Positions 91-62,747 of a stretch of DNA of 64,000 bases are shown here, in pieces. The notes under the pieces are model-generated. The model was not told the origin of the DNA. It did no database searches and saw nothing but the letters and a program-made list of their open reading frames with translations. Origin of the DNA: Escherichia coli (lineage in GTDB: Bacteria; Pseudomonadota; Gammaproteobacteria; Enterobacterales; Enterobacteriaceae); the NCBI RefSeq assembly GCF_003334765.1, contig NZ_QOWT01000014.1, one strand, 5' to 3'. A program made the translations under genes and the position numbers. Every line of letters starts with the position of its first letter. The first letter of the stretch is position 1.

Positions 91-948
91 TCAGCCTAAA
101 ACTGCCAGTTTTTCGAGCGTTTCGAAGCCGTAACGCTGTAAAACGGGCAATAATTGTTCAGCTCCTGGCGTCATTGCCATACAAAAGGCAATATTCGCAT
201 CGGCAGATTTTGCATCCGGGGCTTCATGTTCTAACAACCAGGCCGTTCGGCGAGCAATCGCTGCGCCAGAATCCACCAGCCGGGTTCCCTCTGGCAGCAC
301 TTGTAACAGTTCTTCTTGTAGTAGAGGGAAATGGGTGCAACCCAATACAACGGTATCTGGCGGCTCTTTCATTCTTAACCACGGGCGTAGGATACGTTTT
401 AGTGCATCCAGAGAAACATCTTCGCCATGTAGCTTCGCTTCAGCCAACTCAACCATCTCTGCCGAGCCCAGCATTTCTATCTGGCATTCATTAGCGAAAC
501 GCGCGATCAGCTCATGAGTATAAGAACGTTTAATTGTTCCGCGGGTTGCCAGTAATCCGACAATGCCATTTGCCGTCAGACGTGCAGCAGGTTTAATCGC
601 CGGCACGACACCAACAACCGGGAAGTCGAACTTTTCGCGTAATGCAGGAAGTGAAACGGTACTGGCAGTGTTGCAAGCGACCACAGCCAGCGCAAGGGGA
701 TAACGTTCTTGCACCGCGGTGACAATTGCCACCACTCGCTCAACAATAAACGCTTCGCTTTTTTCGCCATACGGGAAAGCGACGTTATCGAAAGCATAAA
801 TGTAATGGAGATCCGGTAAGAGATGCCGGATCTCGTCATAGACCGACAACCCACCGACGCCGGAGTCAAACACCAGCACGGTGGGACGTGGTTCAGAAGG
901 TGTAGCTGCCAGACAAGGTGTATTCCCGTCCTGCAGTTTGGTAGCCAT
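91..948 (-). CDS. murI: glutamate racemase
   Basis: ORF 91..960 translation recognised as MurI ([40 protein letters not shown]...); start set to the MATKL Met, giving 285 aa. Confidence 0.93.
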
Positions 949-2737: not shown

Positions 2738-2977
2738 TGTAAAGCATCCACAATAGAAGAAGGATGCCGCAGGTTTCATCAATATTACGCGATGATGAGA
2801 ACCAGATGCGACGTTGGCCGGCAGGTCTTCGGGCTTGGAGGGGTATCTAAGATACTAAGAGATGATGACTTCCCACCGAATGGCAGTGTCCGCATAACGC
2901 AATCATCGCACCTTTCCTTACCGCTGCGCGTCAGCTCCAGATTCGCACTGGATTCCCTATTAACTCACAGGACCGGC
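2738..2977 (-). promoter_or_regulatory. cobalamin (adenosylcobalamin) riboswitch in the btuB 5' leader
   Basis: Minus-strand sequence from 2977 reads GCCGGTCCTGTGAGTTAATAGGGAATCCAGTGCGAATCTGGAGCTGACGCGCAGCGGTAAGGAAAGGTGCG... through to the btuB ATG, matching the ~240 nt btuB leader as I recall it. Confidence 0.85.
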
Positions 2978-3105
2978 AAGTGGATGCTACAGGTTGTAAC
3001 AAGTTACTGTCCAGACGTAGCTCACAAATAGGAATTCATCAAGATCTGGACATCTGATGAGCAATCCCTACAATCGCCGCGTACTTTAATTTTTCAGGAT
3101 ACATC

Positions 3106-7981: not shown

Positions 7982-8098
7982 GAAACGGAGCGGCACCTCT
8001 TTTAACCCTTGAAGTCACTGCCCGTTTCGAGAGTTTCTCAACTCGAATAACTAAAGCCAACGTGAACTTTTGCGGATCTCCAGGATCCGCTTTTTTTT
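7982..8098 (+). ncRNA. oxyS: OxyS small regulatory RNA with intrinsic terminator
   Basis: Sequence GAAACGGAGCGGCACCTCTTTTAACCCTTGAAGTCACTGCCCGTTTCGAGAGTTTCTCAACTCGAATAACTAAAGCCAACGTGAACTTTTGCGGATCTCCAGGATCCGC followed by T8 matches OxyS as I recall it; divergent from oxyR. Confidence 0.9.
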
Positions 8099-17935: not shown

Positions 17936-18787
17936 ATGTATCACGACGTCAGCTATCTGCTCTCCCGCCTGATCAACGGCCCGCTGTCCCTGCGCCAGAT
18001 TTACTTTGCCAGCAGTAACGGCCCGGTGCCCGATCTTGCGTATCAGGTCGATTTTCCACGGCTGGAAATTGTGCTGGAAGGTGAGTTTGTTGATACCGGC
18101 GCTGGAGCAACGTTAGTTCCCGGCGATGTGCTGTACGTTCCTGCTGGTGGCTGGAATTTTCCACAATGGCAAGCCCCCGCTACTACCTTTAGCGTGCTGT
18201 TTGGCAAACAGCAACTCGGCTTCAGCGTCGTGCAATGGGATGGCAAACAATATCAAAATCTGGCGAAGCAACACGTCGCCCGACGCGGCCCACGCATAGG
18301 TTCTTTTCTGCTACAAACGCTCAATGAAATGCAAATGCAGCCGCAGGAGCAGCAAACGGCAAGGCTTATCGTCGCCAGCCTGCTTAGCCACTGCCGCGAT
18401 TTGCTTGGCAGCCAAATCCAGACCGCCTCACGCAGCCAGGCACTATTTGAAGCTATTCGCGATTATATCGACGAACGCTATGCCTCCGCGCTTACCCGCG
18501 AATCTGTTGCACAGGCGTTTTATATTTCGCCAAATTACCTCTCGCACCTGTTTCAAAAAACGGGGGCCATTGGTTTTAACGAATACCTGAATCACACGCG
18601 ACTGGAGCACGCTAAGACGTTATTGAAAGGCTATGACCTGAAGGTAAAAGAAGTGGCGCACGCCTGCGGCTTTGTCGACAGCAACTACTTCTGCCGTCTG
18701 TTTCGTAAAAACACCGAACGCTCGCCGTCGGAATATCGCCGGCAGTACCACAGCCAACTGACAGAAAAACCGACTACTCCAGAATAA
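17936..18787 (+). CDS. yijO: AraC-family transcriptional regulator of unknown target
   Basis: 283 aa ORF with a C-terminal AraC-type HTH (YISPNYLSHLFQK ... YFCRLFRK); position matches K-12 yijO. Confidence 0.85.
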   Translation: MYHDVSYLLSRLINGPLSLRQIYFASSNGPVPDLAYQVDFPRLEIVLEGEFVDTGAGATLVPGDVLYVPAGGWNFPQWQAPATTFSVLFGKQQLGFSVVQWDGKQYQNLAKQHVARRGPRIGSFLLQTLNEMQMQPQEQQTARLIVASLLSHCRDLLGSQIQTASRSQALFEAIRDYIDERYASALTRESVAQAFYISPNYLSHLFQKTGAIGFNEYLNHTRLEHAKTLLKGYDLKVKEVAHACGFVDSNYFCRLFRKNTERSPSEYRRQYHSQLTEKPTTPE

Positions 18788-19115
18788 GATGGGTTTGCTG
18801 CGGCGCAGAAAGCACTTTGCGCACCGCGCTCATTACCCGCTGCGGCTCACGCAGGAATGCGTAGATGCTGCATTGCACATAGCGGCAATGTTCAAATCGC
18901 TCGGCACCGGCAAGCTCGATATCCGTAATCAACAGAGCAACATCCGCCCGGCGGATATCCTCATCCGCTAAACGATTCTCCGTTCCCAGCGCGCCCTGAG
19001 TTTCAATGCTGACTCCCCACTTCTCTAACAGGCACAACTTTTCCAGCCGTTCCGCCGCCATATAAGTATGCGCCACGCCGCTTACGCAGGCGGTTACTGC
19101 CACCAGGTATGCCAT
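18774..19115 (-). CDS. frwD: PTS fructose-like EIIB component 2
   Basis: Start at MAYLVAVTACVSGVAHTYMAAE gives 113 aa; fructose-type IIB phospho-Cys motif (ACxSGVAHT). The 3' end overlaps the yijO 3' end by 14 bp. Confidence 0.88.
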   Translation of the reverse strand: MAYLVAVTACVSGVAHTYMAAERLEKLCLLEKWGVSIETQGALGTENRLADEDIRRADVALLITDIELAGAERFEHCRYVQCSIYAFLREPQRVMSAVRKVLSAPQQTHLILE

Positions 19116-19116
19116 T

Positions 19117-19995
19117 TTAACCTCCCACGGTAACCTGAAGTCCGGCCCGTTCTGCCATTTCGCGCATCGTTGCCACATCAGCTGACGACGGCGCAGGCAC
19201 CTCTTTCATCGACCATGTTTTCCCCAGCAGGCGGTATTTCGGTTCGCCGTACTGATGAAACGGTAACAGATGGATCTGCCTGATATTCAGCGGGATCAGT
19301 ACATCCAGCGCCTGCTGCATATTCTCCCGGCTGAGCGTGAAACCAGGGATCAGCGGTAAACGCGGGATCACGTTGACGCCCTCACTCACCAGCAAACGCA
19401 GATTCTCCAGCACGCGTGGCAGGTTCATCTTCACCACATCCCGCGCCTGAGTCGCGTCCATAATTTTTAAATCGAACAACACTTCATCGCACAATTTCGC
19501 CAGCGGTAATAGCTTGCTGGCTGGTGCGTCTCCGGCAGTTTCAATGGCGCATGACACACCCCACAGCCGCAGTCGCTGTAAAAAACGGGTAGCAAACTCC
19601 GCCTGCATTAACACTTCGCCGCCAGAAAGCGTGACGCCGCCGCCGGACGTGCGAAAGAAAATGTCATCTTTCATCACTTCCCGTTCCAGAGCGTCAAGGC
19701 TGATATCGCGACCAATCCGTTCAAACGCCCCGGAGGGGCATTCATCCGCATCACGCAAACATTTCGCACAGTGCAGACATTTCGCCTCTCTGCGTACCGT
19801 CTGGATTTTGCCGGAGATCGACTCCGGATTAGCACACCACGGGCAAAGATGCGGACAGCCTTTAAAAAAGACCACCGTACGAATGCCCTCGCCGTCATTC
19901 AGTGAATAACGCTGAATGTTGAAAATGCGCGCCACATCATCGCGGCGCGTTTCCACAACGTTACAGCTGATGCGCTGTCCGGCGGATGATGTCAT
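19117..19995 (-). CDS. pflC: glycyl-radical enzyme activating enzyme (radical SAM)
   Basis: Start at MTSSAGQ gives 292 aa; radical-SAM CPHLCPWC motif plus a second Cys cluster CLHCAKCLRDADECP. Confidence 0.9.
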   Translation of the reverse strand: MTSSAGQRISCNVVETRRDDVARIFNIQRYSLNDGEGIRTVVFFKGCPHLCPWCANPESISGKIQTVRREAKCLHCAKCLRDADECPSGAFERIGRDISLDALEREVMKDDIFFRTSGGGVTLSGGEVLMQAEFATRFLQRLRLWGVSCAIETAGDAPASKLLPLAKLCDEVLFDLKIMDATQARDVVKMNLPRVLENLRLLVSEGVNVIPRLPLIPGFTLSRENMQQALDVLIPLNIRQIHLLPFHQYGEPKYRLLGKTWSMKEVPAPSSADVATMREMAERAGLQVTVGG

Positions 19996-22258
19996 CCTGG
20001 ATCTCCTTCGACAGTTCGACAAAGAAGGCGCTGTATCCGGCAACGCGCACCACCAGCCCGGCATAATCTTGTGGGCGCTGTTGCGCTTCCCGCAACGTGT
20101 CGGCGTTCACCACGTTAAACTGAATATGTTGTAACTTAAGCTGGGTAAACGCCCGTAAGAAGTCGGCCAGTTTGCGTAATCCTGCTTCACCTTCCAGGGT
20201 CGCCGGAGTGAATTTCACGTTCAGCAACGTACCGTTAGACAGCAGCGTGTTATCGAGCTTACTGACTGACTTCAGTACCGCTGTTGGCCCTTGTGCGTCC
20301 TGGCCCAGCATGGGTGACAAGCCGCCGTCTGCCAGCTGTTCTCCGGCAAAACGACCGTCTGGCGTCGCGCCAACCACCGATCCCAACGGGACGTGAGCAG
20401 AAACGGTATACGATCCCGGCGTGAAGTAGCCGCCGCGCGGGTTCTGGTATTTTTCCACTTCTTTGCAGTAGTGGCGCAACAGTTCGGCGCTGATGTTATC
20501 CACCTCGTCGATATCGTTACCGTATTTCTCGAAGCGGTTAATTAAGCGAGCGCGGACTTTTTCGCCTTCTGGCGTTGCGAAGTTGGCTTTTAATACCGAC
20601 AGCAATTCGTCAAAACTTAAACGCTGTTGCTCAAAAACCATCCCTTTCAACGCATGGAGAGAATCGCTCAGGTTGGCGATACCGATCCCCTGTACGCCGG
20701 AGAAGTTATAACGCGCGCCGCCATCGGTAATATCGCGGCCTTTTTCCAGACAATCGCTGATAAACGATGAGAGCAGCGGTACAGGTGCCCAGTCGCGATG
20801 GCCGATATCACAAATATTGCTGCCCTCAACCATCAGGGTGATGTAGTGGCTGATCTTGGCGCGGATCTGCTCCAGTAAACCTTCATAAGTCAGCGCAGCA
20901 TTGCCTTCATTTTCATGCAGGCAGATTTCCATCACTTTCAGCAGATTAAACATCGCGATGTCATGCAAGCCGTAGGTTCTGCCGGGAATAGATAATTCCA
21001 CACAGCCCACTACGGAATAGTCGCGCGCATCTTCCAGCGAAACGCCACGGTTGAGGAACGCTGGCACCACCACTTCATCGTTAAATATTTGCGGAATACC
21101 GGTGCCGAAGCGAATGGTTTCGGCGGTTTTCATCAGGAACGGCGTGTCGATCAAGGCGTTAGTGCGCACGCCGAGGTTCGGTTGCGGTAATTGCACGCTT
21201 TGATAGGCGTCAAGGCAAAGGAACGAAAGCACGTTCACCGCGCTACGTCCGTTCTCGGTTAACCCGCCGAGCAGTGCGGTATAGCCGGTCGGGAAACCGG
21301 CGAAATAACGCGCGCTACTGGTGGAGCGCAACAGCACGATGTCGTTGCATTTCACCCATAAAGATTCGAGCAGTTCTTTCAGGAACGCCGCATCTTCGCC
21401 CTGGGTTAATGATGTCTGATAGAACGGCAACATATACTGGTCGAAGCGCCCCAACGATAGCGAACTGGCGTTGGATTCGTATTGCAGAATGATGTTCATG
21501 TACCAGAATAACTGGCACGCCTGCCAGAACGTCTGCGGCTTATGTTGCGCGTTATGGCGGGAGATCTCTGCAATAGTCAGCAGCTCTTCGCGACGCTGGG
21601 CATCTGTGCAGTTTGCCGCCATCGTTTCCGCCAGTTCGGCGTAACGCAAAATGTGTTTCTGCGAGGCTTCCAGCAGTAACAACGCGGCCTGATAAAAGTG
21701 ATTCTCCGGCTGTTGCTGACAATGTTGCTGCATCTGTGCCACCAGCTCACCCAGCCCGTGATTCAACAGGCGTGGGTAATCAATAATAATGTGCCCCTGG
21801 CCTTTATCCGTCTGGTTGATGCTGAAAATCTGCGTGTTGGTCGCGGCTTTTACTTCATCTGTCATCTGCCCGTTGATGAAATCTTTCATCGAACGTTTTT
21901 CCCAGTACGGGAACAACTCTTCACGGTAGATACGTTTATCTTCTTCGCTGATAGCAAAGCGGTCCTGCGGACGCGTCGGGAATTGATCCAGCTCTTTCAG
22001 CAGCCAGTAAGGGTCCATTTCCGGCGACATAATCCCGGCGCGCGGTTTTACGGTGCGGTTACCGGCAATCAGTTCTTCATCACGAATCGAAATTTCAACA
22101 TGTTCAAGGATATACGCTGTTGCTTTCGCCCGGCGCAATATCACCGGTTCGCCTTCGGTTTGCCGATGGCTGGCGGTATAAAGCAGCGCCCGCTCCAGCG
22201 AGATTTCACGGGTATTGGCAAACAGTGCAGTTTTGAGGCGAGAGATACGATTCGTCAT
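19961..22258 (-). CDS. pflD: glycyl radical enzyme (annotated formate acetyltransferase 2; true activity unassigned)
   Basis: 765 aa ORF with C-terminal glycyl radical motif RVAGYSA and active-site region VVGCVELSIPG. Confidence 0.9.
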   Translation of the reverse strand: MTNRISRLKTALFANTREISLERALLYTASHRQTEGEPVILRRAKATAYILEHVEISIRDEELIAGNRTVKPRAGIMSPEMDPYWLLKELDQFPTRPQDRFAISEEDKRIYREELFPYWEKRSMKDFINGQMTDEVKAATNTQIFSINQTDKGQGHIIIDYPRLLNHGLGELVAQMQQHCQQQPENHFYQAALLLLEASQKHILRYAELAETMAANCTDAQRREELLTIAEISRHNAQHKPQTFWQACQLFWYMNIILQYESNASSLSLGRFDQYMLPFYQTSLTQGEDAAFLKELLESLWVKCNDIVLLRSTSSARYFAGFPTGYTALLGGLTENGRSAVNVLSFLCLDAYQSVQLPQPNLGVRTNALIDTPFLMKTAETIRFGTGIPQIFNDEVVVPAFLNRGVSLEDARDYSVVGCVELSIPGRTYGLHDIAMFNLLKVMEICLHENEGNAALTYEGLLEQIRAKISHYITLMVEGSNICDIGHRDWAPVPLLSSFISDCLEKGRDITDGGARYNFSGVQGIGIANLSDSLHALKGMVFEQQRLSFDELLSVLKANFATPEGEKVRARLINRFEKYGNDIDEVDNISAELLRHYCKEVEKYQNPRGGYFTPGSYTVSAHVPLGSVVGATPDGRFAGEQLADGGLSPMLGQDAQGPTAVLKSVSKLDNTLLSNGTLLNVKFTPATLEGEAGLRKLADFLRAFTQLKLQHIQFNVVNADTLREAQQRPQDYAGLVVRVAGYSAFFVELSKEIQDDIIRRTAHQL

Positions 22259-22308
22259 GAGGAACTCCTGTGGGAAAGCGAACCCGCCCTTGCGAGCGGG
22301 AGAAGAAC

Positions 22309-22629
22309 TTAAGCGGTTTGCGCCAGGTGAGCTTCAATTTTGCTCATAATGGCGTCAGCACGTTTTACTGCATCGCTGATGTTGACGCGCACGATGGTCT
22401 TGCCAGCAAAACGCTCTTCAAACTTGATGCCGATATCTTTGGTCAGAATCACCATATCAGCGCTCGCCACATCTTCCGCAGTCAGTTCATTTTCCAGACC
22501 AATTGACCCCTGGGTTTCTACTTTCACTTCCCAGCCTTTCGCTTTCGCGGCACTTTCCAGCGCCTCTGCTGCCATATAGGTATGGGCAACACCTGAAGGA
22601 CATGCGGTTACTGCAATAATTTTCGTCAT
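22309..22629 (-). CDS. frwB: PTS fructose-like EIIB component 1
   Basis: 106 aa ORF with MTKIIAVTACPSGVAHTYMAAE (IIB-Fru-type phospho-Cys motif). Confidence 0.9.
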   Translation of the reverse strand: MTKIIAVTACPSGVAHTYMAAEALESAAKAKGWEVKVETQGSIGLENELTAEDVASADMVILTKDIGIKFEERFAGKTIVRVNISDAVKRADAIMSKIEAHLAQTA

Positions 22630-22643
22630 GGCTCGTTCCTCAA

Positions 22644-23723
22644 TTAATTAATTTCAAAATCCAAATCCAGGTCGTCTTCTTTTTCATCAGTCGAAGACCC
22701 ATTTTTACGCGCCAGACTTTTCAGCACGTTCACACAAACAGCCGTCACCACTGCTCCGACAGCCACTGCTGCGATATAACCCAGCTTGCCTTCAACCACC
22801 GGCAGCACAATCAGACCACCCCAGCCTGCATAGCACTGCGCACCGACCAGCGCCGCAGTTACTGCACCACAAACTGAACCGACCATGATGGAAGGAATGA
22901 CACGCAGCGGATCGGCAGCGGCGAAAGGAATCGCCCCTTCAGTAACGCCAACACAGCCCATCACCAGTGCCGCTTTGCCGGTTTCGCGCTCTTCTGCGGA
23001 GAAATTTTTACGACCAATCAGCGTCGCCAGCCCCATCCCCAGCGGCGGGATACAAATACCCACGGCAGCGATGGCCACCACGGTATAAACACCCTGAGCA
23101 ACGCAAATCAGCATGAAGGCATAGGCCACTTTGTTAACCGGACCGCCCATATCGAACGCCAGCATCAGACCCATGATCACCGCCAGCATAACAATGCTGC
23201 CCTGCTGCATCCCCTGAAGCCACTGAGTCAGGCTGTTGGTCAACGCCCCTACAGGCTCGCCCAAGCCCCACATCATGATGCCTGCGGTAATCAGTGTGCC
23301 GACGATAGGAATAATGAAGATAGGCATCACCGAGCGCAGAACTTTATGCACCGGAATTTTCTTCAGGTAATGCACCACGATGCCGCCGATAATCCCGGCG
23401 ATCAGTGCACCAAAGAAGCCCGCACCAAAGCTGTTACCAACCCAGGCACCGATAGCGCACGGAGCCAGCGCAGAACGCTCTGCAATGGAATAACCGATGT
23501 ACGCTGCGAGGAAAGGCACCATCAGCGTCAAGCCCGCAACGCCGATATCAAACAGTTTTTTCAGATTTGGATCGGCTACGGCATCCGGCACTGCGCCTTT
23601 GCCATACAACATGACGGAAACCGCCAGCAAAATACCGCCCGATACCACGAAGGGAATCATGTGTGAAACGCCCGTCATTAAATGCTGACGGGTATTTTTC
23701 AGGATCTGCACCAACTCATTCAT
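22644..23723 (-). CDS. frwC: PTS fructose-like EIIC permease
   Basis: 359 aa polytopic membrane ORF; EIIC-Fru family glycine-rich loops. Confidence 0.9.
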   Translation of the reverse strand: MNELVQILKNTRQHLMTGVSHMIPFVVSGGILLAVSVMLYGKGAVPDAVADPNLKKLFDIGVAGLTLMVPFLAAYIGYSIAERSALAPCAIGAWVGNSFGAGFFGALIAGIIGGIVVHYLKKIPVHKVLRSVMPIFIIPIVGTLITAGIMMWGLGEPVGALTNSLTQWLQGMQQGSIVMLAVIMGLMLAFDMGGPVNKVAYAFMLICVAQGVYTVVAIAAVGICIPPLGMGLATLIGRKNFSAEERETGKAALVMGCVGVTEGAIPFAAADPLRVIPSIMVGSVCGAVTAALVGAQCYAGWGGLIVLPVVEGKLGYIAAVAVGAVVTAVCVNVLKSLARKNGSSTDEKEDDLDLDFEIN

Positions 23724-24031
23724 AAGCTGCTCCCGGGCTTGCGAAAGCCCATGTCCATATTTTTGATGGAGGAAACAATAGGCAATCGCAGGCGGAGCAA
23801 ACAGTGGATAAAAAGGCCATTTACTGGACTTTTGTAATATCAGTACAAAAATGCGATCCGCCTCATAACTTGCGATAAACCGGAAGCATGCCGCAAAACA
23901 GCGTCTTGTGAGACGCGTCGCAAATTGACGGTTACATTACATTTGTCCAGCTTTTGGCAGATTTGTCACATGGCAGGCCGTTGCCGTGCGCTCTTATCCT
24001 GTAAACAGAAAACCGTACCGGGAGAGAGGCA

Positions 24032-26533
24032 ATGGCCCTGATTGTGGAATTTATTTGTGAGCTACCTAACGGCGTACATGCGCGTCCGGCAAGCCACGTT
24101 GAAACGCTGTGTAATACTTTTTCATCACAAATTGAGTGGCATAACCTGCGCACTGACCGCAAGGGCAACGCCAAAAGCGCCCTTGCGCTGATTGGCACCG
24201 ATACGCTGGCGGGCGATAACTGCCAGTTACTGATTTCCGGGGCCGACGAACAGGAAGCGCACCAGCGTTTAAGCCAATGGCTGCGCGATGAATTCCCCCA
24301 CTGCGATGCGCCGCTGGCGGAAGTTAAATCTGACGAACTGGAACCACTGCCGGTTTCACTGACCAATCTGAATCCGCAAATTATCCGCGCCCGCACCGTG
24401 TGCAGCGGTAGTGCAGGCGGCATTCTGACGCCGATCTCTTCTTTAGATCTCAATGCGCTGGGTAATCTTCCCGCAGCCAAAGGCGTTGACGCCGAGCAAT
24501 CCGCACTGGAAAACGGCCTGACGCTGGTACTGAAAAACATTGAGTTTCGTCTGCTGGATAGCGACGGTGCTACCAGCGCGATTCTGGAAGCTCACCGATC
24601 CCTGGCTGGCGATACTTCCCTGCGCGAACATTTACTGGCAGGCGTCAGCGCCGGATTAAGCTGCGCCGAAGCAATTGTTGCCAGCGCGAATCACTTTTGC
24701 GAAGAGTTTTCCCGTTCCAGCAGCAGCTACCTGCAAGAACGTGCCCTGGACGTACGCGACGTCTGCTTCCAGTTACTCCAGCAAATCTACGGTGAGCAAC
24801 GCTTCCCGGCACCGGGCAAACTGACGCAGCCCGCCATTTGTATGGCTGATGAACTGACCCCCAGCCAGTTCCTCGAACTGGATAAAAATCACCTCAAAGG
24901 ATTGTTGCTCAAAAGCGGCGGCACCACCTCACATACGGTGATCCTTGCCCGTTCGTTCAACATTCCAACGCTGGTTGGTGTGGATATTGATGCCCTTACT
25001 CCGTGGCAGCAACAAACGATTTATATCGACGGCAACGCCGGGGCGATTGTGGTTGAGCCAGGGGAAGCCGTAGCTCGTTATTATCAGCAAGAAGCCCGCG
25101 TACAGGACGCCCTGCGTGAGCAACAGCGTGTCTGGCTGACCCAACAAGCCCGTACCGCTGACGGTATCCGCATTGAAATTGCCGCTAACATCGCTCACTC
25201 CGTGGAAGCGCAGGCCGCATTCGGCAATGGTGCGGAAGGCGTTGGTTTGTTCCGCACTGAAATGCTCTATATGGATCGCACCAGCGCACCGGGCGAAAGC
25301 GAGTTGTACAACATTTTTTGTCAGGCGCTGGAATCCGCCAACGGACGCAGCATTATTGTGCGCACTATGGACATTGGCGGCGACAAACCCGTTGATTATC
25401 TGAACATTCCCGCAGAGGCAAACCCGTTCCTCGGTTATCGCGCCGTGCGTATTTATGAAGAGTACGCGTCGTTGTTTACCACGCAGCTACGGTCGATCCT
25501 CCGCGCCTCCGCTCACGGCAGCCTGAAAATCATGATCCCGATGATCTCCTCAATGGAAGAGATCTTATGGGTGAAAGAAAAACTGGCGGAAGCCAAACAG
25601 CAACTACGTAACGAACACATTCCGTTTGATGAGAAAATCCAGCTCGGCATCATGCTGGAAGTGCCGTCGGTGATGTTCATCATCGATCAATGCTGCGAAG
25701 AGATTGATTTCTTTAGTATTGGTAGTAATGACCTGACGCAGTATCTGCTGGCGGTGGATCGCGATAACGCTAAGGTTACTCGTCACTACAACAGCCTGAA
25801 TCCGGCATTCTTGCGGGCGCTCGATTACGCCGTGCAAGCGGTGCATCGCCAGGGCAAATGGATTGGTCTGTGCGGTGAGCTGGGAGCGAAAGGTTCCGTG
25901 CTGCCGTTGCTGGTCGGCTTAGGGCTGGATGAACTCAGCATGAGCGCACCATCAATTCCGGCGGCGAAAGCTCGGATGGCGCAACTTGATAGCCGTGAGT
26001 GCCGCAAGTTGCTCAACCAGGCAATGGCCTGCCGTACTTCGCTGGAAGTGGAACACCTGCTGGCGCAATTCCGCATGACCCAACAAGACGCACCGCTGGT
26101 CACCGCCGAGTGCATCACACTGGAAAGCGACTGGCGCAGCAAAGAAGAAGTGCTCAAAGGCATGACCGATAACCTGCTGCTGGCGGGCCGCTGCCGCTAT
26201 CCGCGTAAACTGGAAGCCGACTTGTGGGCGCGCGAGGCCGTTTTCTCTACCGGTCTGGGCTTTAGTTTTGCCATTCCACACAGCAAATCAGAACACATTG
26301 AGCAATCCACCATCAGCGTGGCGCGTCTGCAAGCGCCGGTGCGCTGGGGCGATGATGAAGCGCAATTCATCATTATGTTAACCCTGAACAAACACGCTGC
26401 GGGCGATCAGCATATGCGCATTTTCTCGCGCCTCGCTCGCCGCATCATGCACGAAGAATTCCGTAACGCGCTGGTTAACGCCGCCTCTGCCGACGCTATC
26501 GCCAGCCTGCTGCAACATGAACTGGAACTGTAA
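24032..26533 (+). CDS. ptsA: multiphosphoryl transfer protein: HPr-like, Enzyme I-like and EIIA(Fru)-like domains
   Basis: 833 aa ORF: N-terminal HPr-like His motif (NGVHARPA), central PEP-utilising His motif ([13 protein letters not shown]) and EI TIM-barrel motifs, C-terminal EIIA motif (AIPHSKSEH). Confidence 0.9.
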
Positions 26534-26544
26534 AAGGAAACATC

Positions 26545-27207
26545 ATGGAACTGTATCTGGACACCGCTAACGTCGCAGAAGTCGAACGTCTGGCACGCAT
26601 ATTCCCCATTGCCGGGGTGACAACTAACCCGAGCATTATCGCTGCCAGCAAGGAGTCCATATGGGAAGTGCTGCCGCGTCTGCAAAAAGCGATTGGTGAT
26701 GAGGGCATTCTGTTTGCTCAGACCATGAGCCGCGACGCGCAGGGGATGGTGGAAGAAGCGAAGCGCCTGCGCGACGCTATTCCGGGTATTGTGGTGAAAA
26801 TCCCGGTGACTTCCGAAGGTCTGGCAGCAATTAAAATACTGAAAAAAGAGGGTATTACTACACTTGGCACTGCTGTATATAGCGCCGCACAAGGGTTATT
26901 AGCCGCACTGGCAGGGGCAAAATACGTTGCTCCGTATGTTAACCGCGTAGATGCCCAGGGCGGAGACGGCATTCGTACGGTTCAGGAGCTGCAAACGCTG
27001 TTAGAAATGCACGCGCCAGAAAGCATGGTGCTGGCAGCCAGCTTTAAAACGCCGCGTCAGGCGCTGGACTGTTTACTGGCAGGATGTGAATCCATCACCC
27101 TGCCCTTAGATGTAGCGCAACAAATGCTCAACACCCCTGCGGTAGAGTCAGCTATAGAGAAGTTCGAACACGACTGGAATGCCGCATTTGGCACTACTCA
27201 TCTCTAA
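26545..27207 (+). CDS. fsaB: fructose-6-phosphate aldolase 2 (transaldolase-like)
   Basis: 220 aa ORF recognised as FsaB/TalC ([32 protein letters not shown]...). Confidence 0.93.
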
Positions 27208-57583: not shown

Positions 57584-57683
57584 TGCCGGATGCGGCGCGA
57601 ACGCCTTATCCGGCCTACAAAAGTTTGCAAATTCAATAAATTGCAGAATTCATGTAGGCCTGATAAGCGAAGCGCATCAGGCA
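57584..57683. repeat. RIP-type BIME (third copy in window, opposite orientation)
   Basis: TGCCGGATGCGGCGCGAACGCCTTATCCGGCCTACAA - AAGTTTGCAAATTCAATAAATTGCAGAATTCATG - TAGGCCTGATAAGCGAAGCGCATCAGGCA. Confidence 0.85.
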
Positions 57684-62662: not shown

Positions 62663-62747
62663 GCAGGCAGGATAAGGCGTTTACGCCGCATCCGGCATTT
62701 GAGCAGGATGCCTGATGCGACGCTGATAGCGTCTTATCAGGCCTACA
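62663..62747. repeat. REP pair (BIME) downstream of cpxA
   Basis: GCAGGCAGGATAAGGCGTTTACGCCGCATCCGGCA and inverted GCCTGATGCGACGCTGATAGCGTCTTATCAGGCCTACA. Confidence 0.85.

Follow-up and report, generated by a model that had tools for sequence, protein, structure and literature searches.

FryA (YpdD), the 'multiphosphoryl transfer protein 1' of E. coli, joins HPr, EI and EIIA domains in this order and carries the motifs GLHARPA, GRTSHTL and AIPHTKS. Its gene has stand-alone IIB and IIC genes and one for an AraC-family regulator as neighbours, and its locus companions are M24 and M42 peptidases (ypdF, ypdE). [quoted passage not shown] The same authors described the FruB-type multiphosphoryl transfer proteins (MTPs), FruB(HI) of Rhodobacter capsulatus and the enteric FPr/DTP, which combine EIIA-Fru with HPr (and with EI in Rhodobacter), are dedicated to a fructose-class permease, and were inferred to have been assembled independently (PMC2405797). 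A further fusion, DhaM, consists of EIIA-Man, HPr and a truncated EI. The general PTS proteins are separate polypeptides that serve many EIIs.

We analysed a window of 64,000 nucleotides of E. coli DNA, in which an ORF uninterrupted from ATG to stop encodes an 833-residue fused protein (Table 1), whereas the opposite strand carries many stops. The ORF is ptsA (b3947), with the UniProt name 'Multiphosphoryl transfer protein 2'; close orthologs are named either so or 'fructose-specific PTS system IIA-like component' in the sources. Its DNA is 100% identical over the full length to E. coli chromosomes. The gene was found in 5426/5426 complete E. coli genomes and was full-length in 5405 of them; in 21 of the 5426, no match reached 80% coverage of the gene. 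The length of 833 residues is constant in PtsA orthologs across Enterobacterales.

PtsA and FryA are paralogs that align collinearly from end to end at 45% identity. Their genes lie at different loci. Both have stand-alone IIB, IIC and AraC-family neighbours, whereas ptsA is accompanied by genes for a glycyl radical enzyme, aldolase and dehydrogenase in place of the peptidases. As is characteristic of the PtsA/FryA group, PtsA is a single collinear chain of ~830 residues, and the fructose-class IIB and IIC that adjoin it have no EIIA of their own; it does not differ in kind from the C-terminal IIA-Fru fusions of PMC2405797. The FruB-type proteins have the opposite domain order, with EIIA at the N-terminus, and the FruB model NF008319 gave 63 bits with PtsA (cut-off 302). 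General EI (PtsI), HPr (PtsH) and EIIA-Mtl/EIIA-Ntr share folds and catalytic residues with PtsA. Its EI part is ~34% identical to EI by structural alignment and ~40% identical by sequence to stand-alone EI representatives, and the PtsI equivalog NF008382 gave 432 bits (cut-off 824). In DhaM, HPr is followed by the N-terminal part of EI, as in PtsA, and NF008478 aligns residues 5-339 of PtsA to 158-470 of DhaM. A DhaM-like identity was rejected, as Pfam found no EIIA-Man domain, the EI is complete, and NF008478 reached 88.6 bits (cut-off 520). The two systems are nevertheless linked thematically by dihydroxyacetone/hydroxyacetone metabolism, via fsaB and gldA.

The gene, its three-domain architecture and its reading as a self-contained phosphoryl chain are already known from standard annotation and from the literature on PTS evolution; being catalogued and ordinary, they leave little room for discovery. 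In the searchable literature, however, PtsA and FryA appeared in annotation-level mentions only; we found no published phosphotransfer assay of any PtsA step and no biochemical characterisation of fused EI paralogs of this class.

Table 1. Features of the ptsA locus, with positions in the window
Feature	Length or residues	Position	Strand	Basis
yijO, AraC-family regulator flanking the module		17936..18787	+	RefSeq; AraC-family matches
frwD, second stand-alone fructose-type EIIB, Cys10 in VTACVSGVAHT	113 aa	18774..19115	-	NF007747, 224 vs 153 bits
pflC, glycyl-radical-enzyme activase	292 aa	19117..19995	-	NF007483, 627 bits; RefSeq
pflD, glycyl radical enzyme	765 aa	19961..22258	-	NF007437, 1722 bits
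frwB, stand-alone fructose-type EIIB, Cys10 in VTACPSGVAHT	106 aa	22309..22629	-	NF007783, 208 vs 135 bits
frwC, stand-alone fructose-type EIIC	359 aa	22644..23723	-	NF007787, 718 bits vs cut-off 426; RefSeq
frwC/ptsA divergent intergenic region	308 bp	23724..24031	.	CRP site(s), Shine-Dalgarno-like element
ptsA CDS, fused HPr-EI-EIIA multiphosphoryl transfer protein	833 aa + stop	24032..26533	+	ORF list, translation
HPr-like domain	1-90	24032..24301	+	PF00381 7-84, E 2.5e-14
His16 codon	16	24077-79	+	GVHARPA
HPr-to-EI linker	91-109	24302..24358	+	model confidence, dN/dS, length variation
Enzyme I module	about 110-683	24359..26080	+	TIGR01417, PF05524, PF00391, PF02896
EI sub-part EIN	110-265		+	
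EI sub-part, mobile His domain	266-340		+	
EI sub-part, PEP-binding barrel	363-653		+	
His301 codon	301	24932-34	+	GGTTSHTV
Cys614 codon	614	25871-25873	+	PEP-binding barrel
EIIA type-2 domain (fructose/mannitol/Ntr class)	690-833	26099..26530	+	PF00359 E 2.2e-33
His750 codon	750	26279-81	+	AIPHSKSEH
fsaB, fructose-6-phosphate aldolase	220 aa	26545..27207	+	TIGR00875, 354.6 bits
gldA, glycerol / L-1,2-propanediol dehydrogenase	367 aa	27218..28321	+	NF047954, 752.6 vs 700 bits; RefSeq

Domains and catalytic residues

The original prediction had claimed a fusion of HPr-like, Enzyme I-like and EIIA-like domains with three phosphohistidine motifs in order. The HMM domain search proposed with it as a check bore out the fusion, as five Pfam domains were found in order in the intact ORF: PTS-HPr at residues 7-84, three Enzyme I domains at 123-653 (PEP-utilisers_N, 6.8e-10; PEP-utilizers, 5.1e-15; PEP-utilizers_C, 2.3e-120) and PTS_EIIA_2 at 690-829. 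Each motif is present once and in the predicted order, namely GVHARPA (residues 14-20, with His16), GGTTSHTV (296-303, with His301) and AIPHSKSEH (747-755, with His750 and His755). Because they lie within significant Pfam domains and align to the catalytic residues of solved structures, these motifs are not chance matches. The second histidine of the EIIA motif did not withstand the comparison: only His750 is a conserved phospho-acceptor position, while at His755 the family consensus has no majority residue and FryA has Trp. We assessed conservation in 100 full-length collinear relatives with 32-90% identity to PtsA, and careful alignment showed His16, His301, Cys614 and His750 to be retained in 99-100 of them. 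Edwardsiella has the same four residues.

In the HPr domain, His16 occupies the position of His15 in HPr, where Crh has Gln, and Arg18 corresponds to Arg17 of HPr. The two residues were kept in 100/100 and 99/100 relatives, respectively. The secondary structure elements of the AlphaFold2 (AF2) model follow the order beta-alpha-beta-beta-alpha-beta-alpha. The TIGR01003 (HPr) score of 35.3 bits was below the NCBIfam cut-off of 47.9, and we therefore base the family assignment on the Pfam match together with the fold and the aligned residues.

The Enzyme I module scored 481.1 bits with TIGR01417, above the cut-off of 341.7, and PF05524, PF00391 and PF02896 follow one another as in the three-part Enzyme I architecture. 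In the alignment to E. coli EI (2kx9/2hwg), His301 fell on His189 (GGRTSHT) and Cys614 on Cys502. Among the catalytic residues and PEP/Mg ligands, His301, Cys614, Lys452 and Glu543 were kept in all 100 relatives, and Arg408, Arg444, Asp447, Asn566 and Asp567 in 98-99 of 100. Using Foldseek, we matched the module to full-length EI (2wqd/2hwg), with TM 0.95-0.97 for the EIC domains. Conservation across the family is lowest in EIN, where the relatives average 25% identity.

The His750, Arg734 and His794 residues of the EIIA domain align to His65, Arg49 and His111 of IIA-Mtl (1a3a). In a second IIA-Mtl entry, 2few, which is presumably the H65Q mutant, Gln stands in the His750 column, which confirms the alignment. 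Among the relatives, His750 and Arg734 were each kept in 99/100 and His794 in 93/100. Foldseek matched the domain to IIA-Ntr and IIA-Mtl with TM 0.77-0.83. The best-scoring EIIA model was that for fructose EIIA, TIGR00848, with 96.2 bits, just under its cut-off of 103.5. As their scores are under the curated NCBIfam cut-offs, the HPr and EIIA domains of PtsA are divergent members of their families.

We used the AF2 model (pLDDT 92.3, pTM 0.83) to set domain boundaries, to gauge confidence in the linker and to match folds. Its lowest-confidence block (pLDDT 68, residues 91-100) lies in the HPr-to-EI linker; between alignment positions 88 and 123, the relatives have segments of 31-49 residues. 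Residues 91-122 also showed the highest dN/dS against Salmonella, 0.26, compared to 0.056 overall and 0.03-0.07 per domain, with dS about 1. All three domains are under purifying selection. Clustering at 50% identity gave over 90 clusters that share the collinear HPr-EI-EIIA architecture, and PtsA aligns over its full length with 96 distant collinear representatives. We also note that the order of the domains along the chain (HPr-EI-EIIA) differs from the order of the phosphoryl flow, EI to HPr to EIIA.

The locus and the proposed relay

The locus is laid out as yijO, frwD-pflC-pflD-frwB-frwC and ptsA-fsaB-gldA. The last three genes were reported to form one operon, and deletion of ptsA left aerobic growth on dihydroxyacetone unaffected (PMC6643234). 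The fsaB gene starts 11 bp past the ptsA stop codon. PDB 8yjo, titled 'Probable dehydratase PflD', is a near-identical match to PflD (1739 bits). The regulator gene yijO travels with the module, being syntenic in Salmonella and also in Edwardsiella, whose neighbourhood otherwise differs. Of the six loci that we examined, four (ptsA/yijO, fryA/ypdC, Hafnia and Tolumonas) have an AraC-type regulator along with the MTP.

At the ptsA locus, we found no EIIA other than that of PtsA, although IIB (frwB, frwD) and IIC (frwC) are present. The FryA, Hafnia, Photobacterium and Tolumonas loci likewise have an MTP beside a stand-alone IIB and no separate EIIA-2; a stand-alone IIC is present in three of these four, while Photobacterium shows only IIB. 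Since the locus supplies stand-alone IIB and IIC and no other EIIA, a self-contained chain is the best reading of PtsA. We consider it likely that PtsA is a complete soluble PTS chain, with HPr, a full Enzyme I and a fructose/mannitol-class EIIA, feeding FrwB/D-FrwC in an anaerobic module. The dedicated phosphorelay put forward in the original prediction thus holds up, given the intact and conserved domains, the purifying selection, the IIB/IIC partners without another EIIA, and the recurrent pairing.

In the proposed relay, His301 on the mobile EI domain would be phosphorylated from PEP with the help of Cys614 and the conserved PEP/Mg site. The tethered HPr domain would then accept the phosphoryl group at His16 and hand it to the tethered EIIA domain at His750, from which it would go to Cys10 of the separately encoded EIIBs FrwB and/or FrwD. 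The final acceptor would be a sugar entering through FrwC. We infer every phosphotransfer step, the FrwB/D/C partnership and the independence from general EI and HPr; transfer might be intramolecular or might take place between the subunits of the EI dimer. What points to the Frw partnership is adjacency and complementarity, since ptsA is transcribed with fsaB-gldA and not with frwCB.

The locus is most likely an anaerobic catabolic module. According to the part of PMC12441222 that summarises Ma et al. 2024, PTS phosphorylation is followed by PflD cleavage of 1,5-anhydromannitol-6-phosphate to 1-deoxyfructose-6-phosphate, and 1,5-anhydromannitol is, on the strength of that summary, the likely substrate. 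The PTS would deliver 1,5-anhydromannitol-6-phosphate, which PflD would open to 1-deoxyfructose-6-phosphate. FsaB would cleave this product and GldA would reduce the resulting hydroxyacetone, two steps that reportedly go back to Ma et al. 2024. We propose only tentatively that PtsA, FrwB/D and FrwC together carry out autonomous anaerobic uptake and phosphorylation of 1,5-anhydromannitol, or of a related anhydro- or deoxy-hexitol, without PtsI or PtsH. If this is true, the use of this gut-relevant sugar neither alters nor depends on the phosphorylation state of EIIA-Glc, and the duplicated EIIB (FrwB, FrwD) might add a regulatory branch. The PflD assignment, as far as the summary conveys it, provides the first candidate substrate for testing the independence of a fused relay, and the same substrate could help to explain the retention of five EI paralogs in E. 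coli.

Regulation and alternative readings

The activity of cAMP-CRP depends on the general PTS via EIIA-Glc. Between ptsA and frwC, a published CRP ChIP peak contains the site TGCGATCCGCCTCATA (PMC4287617), which we mapped to positions 23852-23867 of the window. The ChIP site and that dependence make it probable that ptsA expression is still subject to global PTS control. The insulation from global PTS regulation that had been suggested as a consequence of the relay is hence partly contradicted at the transcriptional level. A second CRP-like site, TGTGAGACGCGTCGCA, lies at 23907-23922, with one mismatch to the consensus. The case for CRP comes from the published ChIP site and not from our consensus search, which gave two matches in the window against 1.8 expected, a count that is not significant. 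No sigma-70 consensus match emerged when we scanned the intergenic region for promoters. A Shine-Dalgarno-like element, GGGAGAGAGG, ends four bases upstream of the ptsA ATG. We found no FNR box (TTGAT-N4-ATCAA, up to two mismatches) in 23724-24031, so the sequence lends no support to the idea of anaerobic regulation.

It is conceivable, if rather unlikely, that the chain is not insulated at all, and that PtsA is an auxiliary, condition-specific entry rather than a bypass, exchanging phosphoryl groups with the general PTS and expressed under cAMP-CRP. General HPr~P could phosphorylate the EIIA domain of PtsA, or its HPr domain could serve other EIIs. The CRP ChIP site fits such an arrangement, as do the His/Arg signature that the HPr domain retains in common with general HPr and the class of the EIIA, which is that of EIIAs served by general HPr. 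E. coli has documented cases of cross-talk between PTS paralogs, such as that of FPr with HPr. However, the HPr and EIN parts of PtsA are far diverged: the HPr domain matched solved HPrs with E-values of only 1e-3 to 1e-2, and EIN is the part in which the family is most variable. Covalent tethering would also kinetically favour self-transfer. Moreover, ptsI mutants are PTS-negative, meaning that PtsA is no visible replacement for EI under standard conditions.

PtsA could also be mainly a regulatory phosphorelay like PTS-Ntr (EI-Ntr/NPr/EIIA-Ntr) that does not serve to energise transport. The phosphorylation state of its EIIA would then control, for example, YijO, PflD/PflC, FsaB or GldA, or some other regulator or enzyme. 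The closest solved relatives of the EIIA by sequence are indeed IIA-Ntr (2a0j, 8.9e-11, vs 1.1e-5 for IIA-Mtl), and 2a0j also ranked first among EIIAs in Foldseek. The co-transcription of ptsA with metabolic enzymes and not with permease genes, and the AraC-type regulators noted above, point the same way. We nevertheless regard this role as improbable. Among the NCBIfam models, fructose EIIA (TIGR00848, 96 bits) outscored PtsN (TIGR01419, 54 bits). In nearly every locus examined, the MTP is adjoined by EIIA-less stand-alone IIB (phospho-Cys) and IIC, which need an EIIA donor, and the reported pathway, in the summary cited above (PMC12441222), opens with PTS phosphorylation.

That ptsA is a cryptic or decaying relic, with nonfunctional domains and leftover motifs, is strongly disfavoured and highly improbable, for although the deletion had no phenotype on dihydroxyacetone (PMC6643234), the gene was historically termed 'putative' and 21 of 5426 genomes have no match that spans 80% or more of it, the low dN/dS of each of the three modules, the constant length across Enterobacterales, the catalytic residues kept in diverse relatives and the 5405 full-length copies all stand against decay.

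The ptsP symbol

The RefSeq symbol for ptsA is 'ptsP'. A PtsP/EI-Ntr identity was rejected, as Pfam found no GAF domain; moreover, the PtsP model NF008283 gave 376.8 bits against a cut-off of 583, with the match confined to the EI part (model positions 234-739). The 'ptsP' label is a naming artefact.

Identity and architecture of PtsA

The ptsA gene is an unbroken ORF of 833 codons from ATG to stop (ORF list, translation), preceded by a purine-rich, Shine-Dalgarno-like GGGAGAGAGG that ends 4 bases 5' of the ATG; the opposite strand of this interval contains stops throughout. Its 2,502 bases are 100% identical to many E. coli strain chromosomes, and a match was present in 5,426 of 5,426 complete E. 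coli genomes of the collection (at least 80% query coverage in 5,405). The surrounding 20 kb share 99.97% identity with strain 300709. The locus is the classical ptsA (b3947) locus, and the orthologs are named "Multiphosphoryl transfer protein 2" by the sources. This E. coli core gene and its architecture are already known, the gene is annotated, and its product is real and functional-looking.

Genuine ptsP lies at a different locus and codes for the GAF-containing EI-Ntr. RefSeq/PGAP gives the symbol 'ptsP' to the identical gene in 10 of the 10 best-matching E. coli genomes listed (e.g. NZ_CP025903.1). We rejected this identity, and consider the label a misleading naming artefact, because a GAF domain is absent from the Pfam results and the score of the PtsP model (376.8 bits) stays below its cut-off of 583.

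The fusion of HPr, Enzyme I (EI) and EIIA domains was borne out by the Pfam search, which returned five domains in that order (see table), and the NCBIfam Enzyme I domain model TIGR01417 scored 481 bits (cut-off 341.7). The motifs GVHARPA (14-20), GGTTSHTV (296-303) and AIPHSKSEH (747-755) occur once each; with the ORF intact, the coordinates and description of the original prediction are therefore correct. In alignments to solved structures, His16 and Arg18 correspond to His15 and Arg17 of HPr, His301 and Cys614 to His189 (GGRTSHT) and Cys502 of E. coli EI, and His750, Arg734 and His794 to His65, Arg49 and His111 of IIA-Mtl. The best solved match to the HPr domain was Crh, with its characteristic Gln in the His16 column. 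A second IIA-Mtl entry, 2few, which we take to be the H65Q mutant, has Gln in the His750 column. The second His of the third quoted motif, His755, lacks conservation: the family consensus has no majority residue there and the E. coli paralog FryA has Trp.

The AlphaFold2 model, computed from a 100-sequence alignment, was confident (mean pLDDT 92.3, pTM 0.83), with the inter-domain linkers among its weakest stretches (residues 91-100, pLDDT 68; 681-690, pLDDT 78). Foldseek matched it to full-length EI (2wqd, 2hwg); for its matches to EI C-domains the TM was 0.95-0.97, and for those to IIA-Ntr and IIA-Mtl 0.77-0.83.

Domains of PtsA (residue numbers) and features of the window (nucleotide positions)
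Feature	Position	Strand	Evidence or remark
PTS-HPr	residues 7-84		Pfam, E 2.5e-14
PEP-utilisers_N	residues 123-237		Pfam, E 6.8e-10
PEP-utilizers mobile domain	residues 266-337		Pfam, E 5.1e-15
PEP-utilizers_C	residues 363-653		Pfam, E 2.3e-120
PTS_EIIA_2	residues 690-829		Pfam, E 2.2e-33
yijO, AraC-type regulator		+	annotation, family scores
frwD-pflC-pflD-frwB-frwC		-	annotation, family scores
frwD	18774-19115	-
frwB	22309-22629	-
yijO/frwD overlap	18774-18787
pflD/pflC overlap	19961-19995	-
frwC/ptsA intergenic region			308 bp
CRP site TGCGATCCGCCTCATA	23852-23867		published site
CRP-like site TGTGAGACGCGTCGCA	23907-23922
ptsA-fsaB-gldA		+	annotation, family scores
ptsA	24032-26533	+
yijF, yijE, katG, metF			after ptsA-fsaB-gldA
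btuB cobalamin riboswitch	2803-2992	-	Rfam, above gathering score
OxyS sRNA	7982-8091		Rfam, above gathering score
ES036 element	38226-38267		Rfam, above gathering score
L31 leader	39247-39299	-	Rfam, above gathering score
ClpQY (hslVU) promoter element	43911-43968		Rfam, above gathering score
ES036 element	57620-57661		Rfam, above gathering score
naRNA4	62666-62743		Rfam, above gathering score
FNR-type palindrome TTGATCGTCATCAA	62871-62884		within yiiM

Putative phosphorelay and its partners

When 1.84 billion cluster representatives were searched exhaustively (E up to 0.001), 22,494 relatives emerged. Among the top 150, over 90 were full-length (about 820-880 aa), collinear HPr-EI-EIIA proteins with only 34-65% identity to PtsA. 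In an alignment of 100 collinear proteins (PtsA, 3 close orthologs and 96 distant representatives), His16, His301 and Cys614 were each present in 100/100, His750, Arg18 and Arg734 in 99/100, and the EI PEP/Mg ligands in 98-100/100. Careful alignment clearly revealed no loss of the phosphohistidines, kept in 99-100 of the 100 relatives.

At the ptsA locus, frwC codes for a fructose-class IIC, and frwB and frwD for two fructose-class IIBs in which the active-site Cys is kept (VTAC[PV]SGVAHT). The sole EIIA domain among the annotated genes of the locus is that of PtsA. Because these IIB/IIC partners lack an EIIA and the pairing recurs elsewhere, the best-supported mechanism is a chain whose every phosphotransfer step we infer: PEP would phosphorylate His301 of the EI part, the phosphoryl group would pass to His16 of the HPr part and then to His750 of the EIIA part, FrwB and/or FrwD would accept it at Cys10, and it would end on the sugar that FrwC translocates. 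Transfer may be intramolecular or run between the subunits of the EI dimer. The dedicated phosphorelay of the original prediction, already the standard reading, agrees with what the analysis shows on domain content, catalytic residues, selection and IIB/IIC gene partnership, and a bypass of general EI and HPr is plausible.

The collinear FryA shares 45% identity with PtsA and, as at the ptsA locus, has IIB (fryB) and IIC (fryC) genes beside it, together with the AraC-type ypdC. The multiphosphoryl transfer protein (MTP) loci of other genera read MTP-IIC-GatZ-IIB-aldolase-AraC-IIB in Hafnia, IIC-IIB-MTP with an AraC-type gene beside it in Tolumonas, and IIB-MTP in Photobacterium. The stand-alone fructose-type EIIB genes frwB and frwD, with Cys10 intact in both, accompany a single IIC; the Hafnia locus likewise has a second IIB gene. 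The 90%-identity cluster of FryA (P0123/P0271) includes P0282, a 346-aa 'aminopeptidase [Citrobacter portucalensis]', which appears to be an artefact of clustering or gene calling, not a real relative; ypdE, a 345-aa M42 peptidase gene, lies directly upstream of E. coli fryA (fryA locus L004, 5939-6976).

According to PMC2405797, five EI paralogs exist in E. coli K-12. A leaky chain, in which PtsA cross-talks with the general PTS, is compatible with the proposed relay. A purely regulatory, PTS-Ntr-like role is unlikely: among solved proteins, IIA-Ntr comes closest in sequence to the EIIA domain, but the domain's fructose-EIIA score exceeds the Ntr-type score (96 vs 54 bits), and this, like the neighbouring IIB/IIC without EIIA, points to transport. 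That ptsA is a cryptic relic is highly improbable and is ruled out by selection data, as overall dN/dS against the Salmonella ortholog is 0.056 (dS about 1.0). By domain, HPr had a value of 0.069, the parts of EI 0.03-0.07 and EIIA 0.028, and only residues 91-122, spanning the HPr-EI linker, were relaxed (0.26). Orthologs across Enterobacterales share 84-91% identity, and nearly all also have 833 aa. Judged from its sequence, ptsA is not a decaying gene.

Transcriptional control

The activity of cAMP-CRP is set by the general PTS via EIIA-Glc. For this reason, and because a CRP ChIP peak lies between ptsA and frwC, the proposed insulation from global PTS regulation, a speculation, is probably wrong at the level of transcription. 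The peak was reported with the site TGCGATCCGCCTCATA (PMC4287617), which maps to the divergent ptsA/frwC intergenic region. It is followed, 40 bp downstream, by a second CRP-like site nearer the consensus, TGTGAGACGCGTCGCA. Although the genes are reputed to be anaerobic, this intergenic region contained neither a sigma-70 consensus promoter nor an FNR-like box when up to 2 mismatches were allowed. A relaxed FNR-like pattern occurred 54 times in the window (28 expected from shuffles), and a perfect FNR-type palindrome, TTGATCGTCATCAA, is located within the yiiM coding region (coordinate mapping to strain 300709).

Substrate and genomic setting

As outlined in a review (PMC12441222) on work by Ma et al. 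(JACS 2024, pmid 39283600), anaerobic breakdown of 1,5-anhydroglucitol and 1,5-anhydromannitol starts with PTS phosphorylation to the 6-phosphates, which are then cleaved to 1-deoxyfructose-6-phosphate by two glycyl radical enzymes, YbiW and PflD. PDB structures exist for PflD (8yjo) and YbiW (8yjn, 8id7). FsaA/FsaB reportedly split this product into glyceraldehyde-3-phosphate and hydroxyacetone, which GldA is said to reduce to 1,2-propanediol. Together, these steps would unite the whole ptsA locus in a single module for anaerobic catabolism, in which PtsA and FrwBCD form the entry step and 1,5-anhydromannitol is the likely substrate. Our literature search turned up no fused relay of the PtsA/FryA type that had been characterised biochemically; with the newly proposed substrate, such a test becomes feasible. 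ptsA-fsaB-gldA has been described as a single operon, and ptsA deletion left aerobic growth on dihydroxyacetone unchanged (PMC6643234).

The yijO-to-fsaB module is syntenic between Salmonella and E. coli. Edwardsiella tarda (CP100795.1, 1817-11175) has the full yijO-frwD-pflC-pflD-frwB-frwC / ptsA-fsaB module, the counterpart of window positions 17936-27207, and its PtsA shares 86% identity with that of E. coli. There the module lacks gldA and its surroundings are unrelated, with McrBC to one side and a LacI regulator plus a mannose-type PTS to the other. These observations suggest horizontal transfer of the module as one unit.

Elsewhere, from murI/btuB through cpxA/kdgT, the window carries ordinary E. 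coli chromosomal sequence, and the Rfam matches are all expected for this region. The pflD and pflC genes overlap by 35 bases, and the convergent yijO and frwD overlap at their 3' ends by 14 bases.
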